64,000 nucleotides of DNA. Source: an uncultured virus (IMG/VR IMGVR_UViG_3300049893_002526). Its lineage: Duplodnaviria > Heunggongvirae > Uroviricota > Caudoviricetes. Positions 4,664 through 50,602 of this stretch are shown piece by piece (position 1 is the first letter of the stretch; every line of letters starts with the position of its first letter). Both the position numbers and the translations under genes were made by a program. The DNA is taken from the IMG/VR virus record IMGVR_UViG_3300049893_002526. The stretch is one strand, 5' to 3'. Below the pieces are notes generated by a model, which worked only from the letters and a program-made list of their open reading frames with translations, had not been told where the DNA came from and made no database searches.

Positions 4664-4745
4664 GCCCAGGTGGTGGAATGGTAGACACACAGCACTTAAA
4701 ATGCTGAGGCGTTATGCCGTACGAGTTCGAGTCTCGTCCTGGGTA
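4664..4745 (+). tRNA. trnL: tRNA-Leu (anticodon TAA), intronless, CCA not encoded
   Basis: Acceptor GCCCAGG/CCTGGGT, D-loop GGAATGGTAGAC, anticodon arm CAGCA-CTTAAAA-TGCTG, long variable arm, T-arm ACGAG-TTCGAGT-CTCGT. Confidence 0.95.
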
Positions 4746-46257: not shown

Positions 46258-46446
46258 TTACTTTTTAGCGATTTTAGTTATCAGACCAGCAGCAACTTCG
46301 ATCACTTTGTACACCCTGTTGTATATCTTGTTATCGGTTTCTGAGGGAGTTAAGTTGACGATAACTAGGGCTAAACCGTGCACGGCAGCGCCAACGGCAA
46401 TGATGTCGGCCCAGTGATTAACGAGAAGGTTGATGGTGTTGGACAT
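46258..46446 (-). CDS. small membrane protein (holin-like)
   Basis: TM segment, IVNLTPS.TDN motif, basic C-terminus. Confidence 0.6.
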   Translation of the reverse strand: MSNTINLLVNHWADIIAVGAAVHGLALVIVNLTPSETDNKIYNRVYKVIEVAAGLITKIAKK

Positions 46447-46495
46447 TGGAGTCCTAGCGGGATATTTATAGTTTAGGTCCAGCAGGTTAAAAGTA

Positions 46496-46637
46496 GGTGT
46501 GCGGATAGTGCGGTATGGAAGTTATGTGTTTTGGCGTACCGCAGCTCCGGAGGAGCGAGGATAGGGTGATGGCCTGAGCGTAAAACGTCGCATCAGGACG
46601 AATCAGAGGCTCAGGCTCTATCGCTATTCAGCATACC
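46496..46637 (+). ncRNA. candidate ~140-nt multibranch structured RNA
   Basis: Several complementary stems with G-U pairs that only form on the plus strand, filling an ORF-free gap. Confidence 0.6.
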
Positions 46638-46647
46638 GATGACTTAG

Positions 46648-46956
46648 TCAGTCCCTACGCCAGGTCGATTTGATTTCCATGGTGCCGCCCAACAAGTCCT
46701 GAGCTCTCGACCCATCGGGTTCGTGCTCAATTATTTCGTACTTGGGTTTTTCCTGCGCCTCCCACTCTTTTACAATTTCCTGCGCCTGTCGGTCCACATC
46801 CTTCAGGGTCTGTTCCGTGCGCCACTCGACCCAGTCATGCCGGCACCAATTTAGTGCCGCACGAACCCACGGGTTTAGTTTTAGCCTTGGCCATACCTCA
46901 ATTAGCCCTATTAGAAGTTCATAAATTAACGCGTTAAACACAGCGTATTTTTTCAT
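46648..46956 (-). CDS. hypothetical protein
   Basis: ORF. Confidence 0.65.
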   Translation of the reverse strand: MKKYAVFNALIYELLIGLIEVWPRLKLNPWVRAALNWCRHDWVEWRTEQTLKDVDRQAQEIVKEWEAQEKPKYEIIEHEPDGSRAQDLLGGTMEIKSTWRRD

Positions 46957-49369: not shown

Positions 49370-50602
49370 ATGAAGCTCTCACAAACCGGTCTGGACCTGA
49401 TCAAGGAGTTTGAAGGTCTGCGCCTTAAGGCGTACTCGGACATTGGCGGCGTACCGACTATTGGGTACGGTACGACTGGGCCGGATATCAAACTCGGCAT
49501 GACAATCACCAAGGCCGAGGCTGAGGCGCTCTTGCGTGCCGACGTGGCCGCATTTGAACTGGGCGTCTCAAACTTAGTCAAGGTTGCGATCAACCAGAAC
49601 GAGTTCGACGCTTTAGTTTCGTTTAGCTACAACGTTGGGTTAAACGCCCTTAAGACAAGCACGCTTCTTCGTCTTCTGAATGCCAATGCAGATCGCTTAG
49701 TTGTCGCATCTGAGTTTCTTCGTTGGAACAAAGTCGGCACTCAAGTTGTCGAAGGGTTAACAAGGCGCCGAAAAGCTGAGCAGGCTTTATTCTTGCTGAA
49801 GCCTAAGCACCCTCAGTTGGCCAGCTCGATCTACGCCAAGGAAGATACCTGGCTTAAACGTCGTCCGATTCAAAGTTCGGAGCTGGCAGCTGAGGACAAA
49901 CTGTTCGTTCCCAAGGGCAGCGCGTGGGAGTGGACCGAAATTCGGCAATACCCTGGCGAACGTCATCAACGAGTGTTCCTACAAGCCAGACCGGACGCTG
50001 AGTGGTGGTTTTGGCCCGAGCACTTTAAGATCATAAACGACGTTGAGGTGCAGGAGAATCCTCCTAAACTTGACGGCGAGATTAAGCTCGTAGTTCCGTA
50101 CTTCAGCCAGCGCGATAATAAAAAAGATCCTCTTCGTACGTGTTTTAGTAGTAGCTGCGCGATGCTCTTGGCAGCTTTGGATCCGGACGCTATAGATAGC
50201 GACGATGAATATATAAACGAAGTTTATAAGTATGGTGATACTACAGAAGCTTCTGCTCAGCTCCAAGCTTTAAAGCATTACGGTATCGATGCTAGGTTTG
50301 TCCAAAACTGGGATTGGGCCAAAGTCGAATCTCAACTAAGGCTTGGTATTCCTGTCCCTATCGGTGTGCTTCATAAAGGTTCGGTGTCCAGCCCCACCGG
50401 CGGCGGGCATTGGCTCGTCGTGGTCGGTATAACAGCGGACGGCACAAAGCTATGGGTACACGATCCTTTCGGCGAAATGGACCTTGTTAATGGTGGCTAT
50501 CCCAGCACCGACGGTAAGTACAGGCTGTATTCGAAAAAGAATCTGAGTCCCCGCTGGATGGTCGAGGGAAACGGTTCTGGATGGGCTATTGTCGCGAAAT
50601 AG
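49370..50602 (+). CDS. endolysin: GH24 lysozyme + C39-like peptidase
   Basis: IKEFEG..L.AY.D..G.PTIGYG.T, GL.RRR.AE; VPYFSQRDN...CFSSSCAM...GHW...VHDP. Confidence 0.92.
   Translation: MKLSQTGLDLIKEFEGLRLKAYSDIGGVPTIGYGTTGPDIKLGMTITKAEAEALLRADVAAFELGVSNLVKVAINQNEFDALVSFSYNVGLNALKTSTLLRLLNANADRLVVASEFLRWNKVGTQVVEGLTRRRKAEQALFLLKPKHPQLASSIYAKEDTWLKRRPIQSSELAAEDKLFVPKGSAWEWTEIRQYPGERHQRVFLQARPDAEWWFWPEHFKIINDVEVQENPPKLDGEIKLVVPYFSQRDNKKDPLRTCFSSSCAMLLAALDPDAIDSDDEYINEVYKYGDTTEASAQLQALKHYGIDARFVQNWDWAKVESQLRLGIPVPIGVLHKGSVSSPTGGGHWLVVVGITADGTKLWVHDPFGEMDLVNGGYPSTDGKYRLYSKKNLSPRWMVEGNGSGWAIVAK

Follow-up and report, generated by a model that had tools for sequence, protein, structure and literature searches.

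A rod-shaped RNA of cyanophages as a candidate stand-alone mimic of an AbiF-type RNA antitoxin

Our results point to a small structured RNA, hereinafter module E, which is carried as a solitary element by many cyanophages and also stands directly before a host RNase gene, and is therefore most likely the viral copy of a host RNA antidote. We consider it probable (roughly 0.7) that E belongs to the AbiF-type RNA antitoxins as a new member and that the phage copy serves as a stand-alone decoy against abortive infection; in the best reading of our analysis, E would represent a new structural subtype of the type III RNA antitoxins of the AbiF family (Abi_2, HEPN) in picocyanobacteria. This reading builds on the fold of the RNA, its strand, its wide distribution among phages, its occupation of the antitoxin slot at three host loci and searches in which no phage toxin gene was found. 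The starting point was the window, i.e., the whole 64,000-nt stretch of IMG/VR record IMGVR_UViG_3300049893_002526, which, judging from genes including those for tail, endolysin, thyX and HNH proteins, is a segment of a cyanophage genome (Table 1). The same RNA is found in Synechococcus phage S-CBS2. An earlier note had drawn in this region a multibranch RNA of about 140 nt with a possible pseudoknot. E is a real, uncatalogued structured RNA, other than that molecule, and the flagged region is a chimaera joining two modules, E and A+D.

Table 1. Features of the E locus in the window (position 1 is the first nucleotide of the window)
Feature	Coordinates	Strand	Description
62-aa gene	46258..46446	-	conserved small hydrophobic phage protein; downstream of the cassette
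putative -10 hexamer, 62-aa gene	46470..46475	-	overlaps TATAGT; kept in element-less relatives
four-way junction of the earlier note	46496..46637	+	how the chimaeric A+D+E cassette folds on the plus strand; not a conserved unit
hairpin A	46509..46543	-	7-bp stem, 21-nt conserved C/A-rich loop
hairpin D	46544..46556	-	5 bp closing a 3-nt loop; the window shows one compensatory change
module E	46567..46622	-	56-nt rod; proposed stand-alone AbiF-type RNA antitoxin mimic
putative -10 hexamer TATGCT	46630..46635	-	7 nt upstream of the first base of E; contained in the closing helix (3' strand)
102-aa gene	46648..46956	-	conserved phage gene, function unassigned; upstream of E, same strand

Module E folds into a 12-bp basal stem with two bulged A residues, a 4x2 internal loop and an apical hairpin (z -4.39 for the module alone). 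In agreement with the earlier note, which did not recognise the element, no Rfam family matches it, either at the gathering threshold or at E ≤ 10, and E is absent from the families of Rfam 15. A first pattern scan for E yielded 79 matches, mostly due to chance and including some close copies. With a covariance model, divergent copies were recovered in which the stem pairs had been exchanged. The last pattern scan of IMG/VR, based on the conserved core, returned at least 120 matches; among the matches listed, a filter requiring the conserved 3' end and no fewer than 5 of the 7 stem pairs kept 108 copies and dropped 12. The 108 copies, among the matches listed, comprise 50 distinct sequences and are thus not independent. 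Consequently, alignment A7 contains 56 rows, namely, the 50 distinct copies, five earlier copies and the window. Across A7, the rod consists of 19 pairs, with 94.6% of cells paired and two-sided changes in 12 of the 19, and none of 500 shuffles reaches the observed covariation score. The members were prefiltered for stem pairing and the positions fixed by the pattern are conserved by construction; the most covariation is found at the four stem positions left free by the pattern (23, 14, 23 and 11 two-sided changes). Sensitivity differed between the searches: blastn recovered E in 2 of 50 records and missed most of the divergent copies detected by the covariance model. In 50 records that overlapped in part with the first set, the model found E in 12 (E ≤ 0.1), of which 7 matches were full-length (E ≤ 1e-5).

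Several other structural readings of E were rejected. On 14 close copies, the minus strand could be read as an H-type pseudoknot, but on 56 the rod fits better. Hammerhead ribozymes are defined by a conserved CUGANGA and GAAA core around three stems; in E, the look-alike bases vary freely among homologues and no Rfam family matches. Ribozymes of the HDV-like/theta type form a nested double pseudoknot with P3/L3, for which E has no room, and the one alternative pseudoknot displays no two-sided change and has one pair broken in 11 of 56 rows. Pistol and twister readings were discarded on conservation and topology, and small open reading frames on either strand conserve neither length nor C-terminus. 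Among the functions suggested in the earlier note, a decoy or antitoxin matches the reading we favor, whereas a ribozyme or a packaging RNA found no support.

The link to host defense came from a search of cellular genomes with the covariance model R2. One of 151 cyanobacterial genomes matched, as did 3 of 151 genomes of the family of that match, mostly 1.3–4 Mb in size, which we read as picocyanobacteria; no match was found in 90 genomes of another order, and the genus of the host match contributed no further genome among 7. The three host copies score 71.8–72.2 bits. Each immediately precedes an Abi_2 gene in the same orientation and comes just after a sigma-70-type promoter (TTGAC...-10), of which the -10 hexamer, 6 nt before E and behind TTGAC, is similar to that in the window. 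The E-linked protein matches Pfam PF07751 (Abi_2; E 4e-48), PADLOC AbiD (E 1.2e-45) and PDB 8VZ6 (E 1.7e-25, with the R-x4-H HEPN motif aligned), the last being a complex of PbAbiF with RNA (PMC12737573). Given that the E-linked proteins are 88–98% identical, the three copies represent one clade and the host evidence comes close to a single independent observation. Type III antitoxins may come as repeated units with a terminator ahead of the toxin gene; each of these loci has a single copy of E with only a 4-U run after the stem, and abiF-type host loci also appear to be single-copy. One of them, L514, additionally holds a ParE-RHH pair and an HTH_3 antitoxin-like gene around E and Abi_2 (L514:507-981, 2491-2742).

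Abi_2 genes are present in 19 of 401 genomes of the host family, at 21 loci. Nineteen of these were considered, the two left out being second fragments of split genes, and since one locus starts at a contig end, 18 had a 5' region. Upstream of the gene, 14 of the 18 carry an Rfam abiF match, none of which reaches the gathering score. Three have E, and the remaining one has a hairpin recognised by eye as abiF-shaped; no locus combines the two. The E-linked proteins form a group of their own, with 25–34% identity to the abiF-linked ones. Thus, with either E or an abiF-type RNA at these loci and never the two together, E fills the antitoxin slot of one Abi_2 group. Among 13 further cyanobacterial Abi_2 homologues (27–38% identity), 9 are accompanied by an Rfam abiF match and 4 by a similar hairpin recognised by eye, and E was found at 0 of 13. 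At L518, L519, L534 and L535, Abi_2 is preceded by yet another host RNA, the third subtype, in which the inserted hairpin is longer and the bulge is rich in C; the Abi_2 proteins of L518, L519 and L535 make up a separate group.

No counterpart of the toxin was detected in phages. Three host Abi_2 proteins matched neither the window nor any phage locus among 518 sequences, and PF07751 was absent from 5 of 5 phage records, including G001, the nearest record, which is 77% complete. Phage E thus appears, within the limits of a nearest record of 77% completeness, to be a homologue of a host antitoxin RNA without the toxin gene. E is common in phages and E-linked Abi_2 is rare in the sampled hosts (3 of 18 family loci); this imbalance counts against the reading and may reflect under-sampling, cross-reactivity or another role.

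In phages, E is present but unannotated in six cultured Synechococcus viruses (S-CBS2, S-RIM8, S-SRM01, S-RIM32, S-CREM1 and S-SZBM1), and it often adjoins tRNA genes. Using ARAGORN at a lowered threshold, a tRNA was called in 61 of the 108 E loci among the matches listed. Among the same matches, the 3' end of E lies no more than 3 nt from the 5' end of a tRNA in 35 of 108 copies, and the start of E lies within 50 nt of a tRNA 3' end in 43 of 108; in S-CREM1 and S-RIM8, E abuts tRNA genes. Such an arrangement, together with the descent of the host copies from one clade, would be expected if E were a general processing or stabilising hairpin of phage tRNA and small-RNA operons, or a cis leader, with its site before Abi_2 resulting from a single capture. 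We consider this unlikely, given that 47 of the 108 loci among the matches listed, some of them shorter than 650 nt, have no tRNA call, that E takes the exact promoter-proximal slot of the abiF RNA at Abi_2 genes, and that recognised abiF RNAs occur in the same phage clusters. Indeed, an Rfam abiF RNA was found near E, as a neighbor and not as E itself, in 2 of 20 loci, and a custom regular expression recovered abiF-like RNAs in 26 of the 108 E loci among the matches listed, all on the same strand as E and none on the opposite one. Some of these abiF-like RNAs carry long hairpins inserted in the loop (L397, L411, L413, L415, L419, L454, L457, L470, L477 and L500); they sit in cyanophage ncRNA/tRNA clusters, are mostly missed by Rfam and are likely to be further solitary antitoxin mimics. 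Many siphoviral loci (L392-L505), and S-CBS2 too, also share a recurring short hairpin some 25 nt upstream of E.

The earlier note assigned the RNA to the plus strand, antisense to both flanking genes, on account of several G-U pairs. This assignment does not survive comparison. At three wobble positions of A7, the minus strand has G-U in 20, 19 and 35 of the 56 rows, and the same positions read on the plus strand are A-C. Furthermore, 228 of the 229 tRNA calls neighboring E among the matches listed lie on the same strand as E, and module A+D folds better on the minus strand (z -3.26) than on the plus strand (z -1.26). The wobble pairs, the tRNA strand and the orientation of the host genes all point to the minus strand as the one on which E would function.

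Whether the copy in the window is itself active deserves separate consideration. It has no tRNA neighbor (the single tRNA-Leu(TAA) gene of the window is at 4664-4745, plus strand) and it sits in a spacer between the 102-aa and 62-aa genes (46447-46647) that is an insertion hot spot, varying from about 20 to 1700 nt among relatives, some of which have E after thyX instead. In addition, its apical loop ends in C where A is usual, and no -35 element is seen, a promoter scan having found nothing there. E could then be of the antitoxin type and the window copy a silent passenger recombined into the hot spot. We regard this as decidedly improbable, because the copy, the sole significant match to R2 in the window and thus present once, scores 70.2 bits, equal to the host copies (72.2), keeps every invariant column of A7 and is preceded by a -10-like hexamer at the spacing seen in the hosts. 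Among the matches listed, a -10-like hexamer lies 4–8 nt 5' of E in 37 of the 108 copies, compared to 4.4% of random positions. In the RNA run X1, one contig of a relative joins across the element, without cover of E.

The larger molecule of the earlier note was a plus-strand fold, and as a fold it is well founded. All of the named helices are present in the window and together form the plus-strand minimum free energy structure of the 142-nt region (-61.3 kcal/mol), which is more stable than shuffled sequences (z -5.02; 0 of 200 shuffles as good); the minus strand also folds well (z -4.15). Covariation supports its 3' arm, i.e., module E, across 56 sequences. The 142-nt junction is not conserved as a unit: in relatives, the 5' half lacks the 3' arm, which lies elsewhere in the genome and without the 5' half. 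The 14-bp closing helix was seen only in the window and the nearest record, G001, and the 15-nt tail folds equally well in 33 of 2000 shuffled versions, so it is unusual but unsupported. The loop/bulge pseudoknot does have its 5-nt complementarity in the sequence, with 86.5% of cells paired in 14 close homologues, but it displays no two-sided change and lies on the wrong strand. Similarly, the TATAGT box invoked as a promoter is present at 46467-46472 (+), but L006 and L007, which have none of the element, retain it too, and it shares bases with a -10-like hexamer of the next gene on the minus strand; it is hence not evidence of a plus-strand RNA. Blastn of the whole element against GenBank phages gave 8 matches, all due to chance. 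The stability of the fold, the rarity of equally good tail shuffles and the retained loop/bulge pairing would favor a multibranch RNA with a pseudoknot functioning on the plus strand in this lineage; with its confinement to one lineage, the separation of its halves and the three lines of evidence for the minus strand, we hold that possibility to be highly improbable. What stands of the proposed independently transcribed RNA is that it is structured and uncatalogued, and what falls are its strand, its boundaries (56 rather than 142 nt), its topology (a rod) and its promoter.

The modular nature of the region emerges from relatives sharing the flanking genes, which are of three kinds: those without any element and with a spacer of 30–42 nt (e.g., L004 and L006-L008), those with the 5' half only, i.e., hairpins A and D (L001-L003), and those with A twice and other hairpins in between (L012 and L024). 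Of 68 loci from a metagenome scan, 8 were real, all of them syntenic, and two are apparently contigs already found. E adjoins D in none of these flank-gene or metagenome relatives, and is placed elsewhere, adjoining thyX, in five related records. The spacer of L005 holds small genes, including an HNH-like frame, and in L318 and L331 the thyX frame is about twice the usual length (460 aa in L318), which suggests an intein or another insertion. The 62-aa protein downstream has no Pfam and no PHROG match. Elsewhere in the window (49370-50602, plus strand), the endolysin gene encodes a phage lysozyme domain fused to a C39-like peptidase domain.

The other module, A+D (46490-46566), is limited to one clade. 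It is a second cassette, distinct from E, and may be another decoy. Hairpin A is confined to this locus of one phage clade and is duplicated in some relatives; 95.2% of cells are paired in 12 copies, yet 5 of the 7 pairs are invariant, and a wobble is G-U on the minus strand in 11 of the 12. In L012 (1525-1612), L024, L160 and L183, two more hairpin modules, B and C, each with an A/U triloop and with no homologue in other loci, lie between the duplicated A copies. A GTDB pattern scan for module A gave 84 matches, none with the flanks of the module, and blastn of A+D against the 401 host-family genomes gave 4 short chance-level matches and no host homologue. The search with the A+D model R3 returned one match (E 0.0015), inside a coding region; as both helices of the model were built one column off, it is a weak negative. 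The non-phage metagenome contig L190 shares the loop of hairpin A and some flank (1170-1250), nhmmer giving no significant match. Kinship of A+D with host abiF-type RNAs was rejected as well (5–19 of 1000 shuffles for two near-identical hosts and 64–912 of 1000 for five others). The same DNA might instead encode an arginine-rich plus-strand peptide of 18–21 aa, with the folds sequestering the start as in type I toxin mRNAs: the start codon is kept (GTG; ATG in L160), several changes are synonymous and an SD-like sequence precedes the second copies. This we find barely credible, in that the 18-codon frame (46508..46564, plus strand) is closed at codon 3 in L023 and ends at differing stops in other relatives, with variable C-termini, replacement changes are about as many as silent ones, the better fold of A+D is on the minus strand and the peptide lacks a hydrophobic stretch.

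Taking E as an antitoxin and phage decoy, the following scenario may be envisaged. In the host, E would be transcribed first from the Abi_2 promoter and should bind that RNase and keep it silent, acting as the antitoxin of the L514-group Abi_2 proteins. In phages, which carry E without the toxin, the transcript would start from its own -10 element or, alternatively, arise by read-through from the upstream gene or within tRNA operons, where tRNA 5' maturation, i.e., the action of RNase P, would cut the 3' end of E free. As the host antitoxin decays in infection, phage E would replace it and, given that the phage makes E without any toxin, would keep the RNase bound, such that abortive infection stays off. 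Expression, processing, binding and protection by phage E are in this scenario what we infer from the comparative analysis. A broader proposal, which we advance only tentatively, is that RNA antidotes may be kept by cyanophages as modular arrays, comprising E, several abiF-type RNAs and perhaps hairpins A, B, C and D, often positioned for release by host tRNA maturation, and that the bulge-less E may block AbiF-family RNases in a new manner and across toxin groups; the latter would account for E being commoner in phages than its cognate toxin in sampled hosts.

If correct, the decoy reading would provide a function for an unannotated RNA of many freshwater and estuarine cyanophages and a second structural antitoxin class for the AbiF family, the presumed origin of Cas13. 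It would also make RNA antitoxin mimicry a standing and widespread phage cargo rather than the escape of one phage, and it suggests that phage tRNA clusters be read as anti-defense RNA islands. The reading is directly testable, given that E is only 56 nt long, a candidate toxin has been identified and cultured carriers exist (S-CBS2, S-CREM1 and S-RIM8).

The closest known relatives of E, by position and in part by structure, are the abiF, AbiFr and RCd22 RNAs. The small RNA upstream of the AbiF gene binds and blocks the HEPN RNase in cis and in trans (10.1101/2025.04.15.648962, PMC13064643) and neutralises the toxin in trans (10.1101/2025.04.15.648962), and the single-stranded bulge of the RNA is the inhibitory part in the case of PbAbiF (PMC12737573). 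Like these RNAs, E is a short stem-loop directly 5' of a host Abi_2 gene; it shares with the abiF consensus the upper 3-bp AGC/GCU stem followed by CUCU, a feature partly fixed by the pattern and also present in copies found by the covariance model, and occurs in the same phage clusters as abiF RNAs. Nevertheless, the abiF family model RF03085 (membership threshold, a covariance-model score of at least 37 bits) does not match E in the window, at 20 E loci, at L416 (E ≤ 10) or at the three host loci; the 6-nt single-stranded 3' bulge of abiF is absent from all 56 rows of A7, E having instead a continuous 12-bp basal stem with two bulged A residues and an apical hairpin; and E is linked to a distinct Abi_2 group. 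The sequence likeness of E to abiF is weak, being matched by 9–668 of 1000 shuffles for the window copy and 344–965 of 1000 for the host copy. L387 (577-605, minus strand) and L388 (1501-1528, minus strand) combine the apex of E with an abiF-like base bearing the 6-nt bulge and, in sequence, look like intermediates between E and abiF. RCd22 differs further in being a two-motif array, whereas E is single-copy.

Our literature search found no description of E or of phage-borne AbiF decoys, with the proviso that Zilberzwige-Tal et al. 2025 may mention viral AbiF RNAs. In its available text, PMC9964418 notes an abiF RNA in cyanophage S-CREM1 and proposes no target; the motif of E was found in none of seven supplementary files of PMC10690425, of which files 1-2 may list E unnamed. 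Structured phage ncRNAs in or near tRNA clusters are represented by GOLLD and ROOL (PMC5737381) and by wcaG and manA (PMC9964418); E resembles them in this setting and differs in having no Rfam match, in being far smaller and in having a host gene partner. A CRISPR-repeat match on E was likewise not found in Rfam.

For type III systems, PMC3594212 and PMC13064643 describe how phage shut-off of host transcription frees the toxin of ToxIN and how phage RNA mimics suppress it. According to the same sources, pseudo-ToxI of phage PhiTE is a phage-encoded RNA that copies a type III antitoxin but comes without the toxin, as E would. The two differ in toxin family and fold (ToxN and pseudoknot repeats as opposed to the AbiF family and a rod), and pseudo-ToxI, as described there, arose in escape mutants of one phage, whereas E is a standing, widespread cargo, often tRNA-linked, of both siphoviral and T4-like cyanophages. 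The general kinds to which E would belong, the type III RNA antitoxin and the phage RNA mimic, are thus already known, and E would be a new variant among them.
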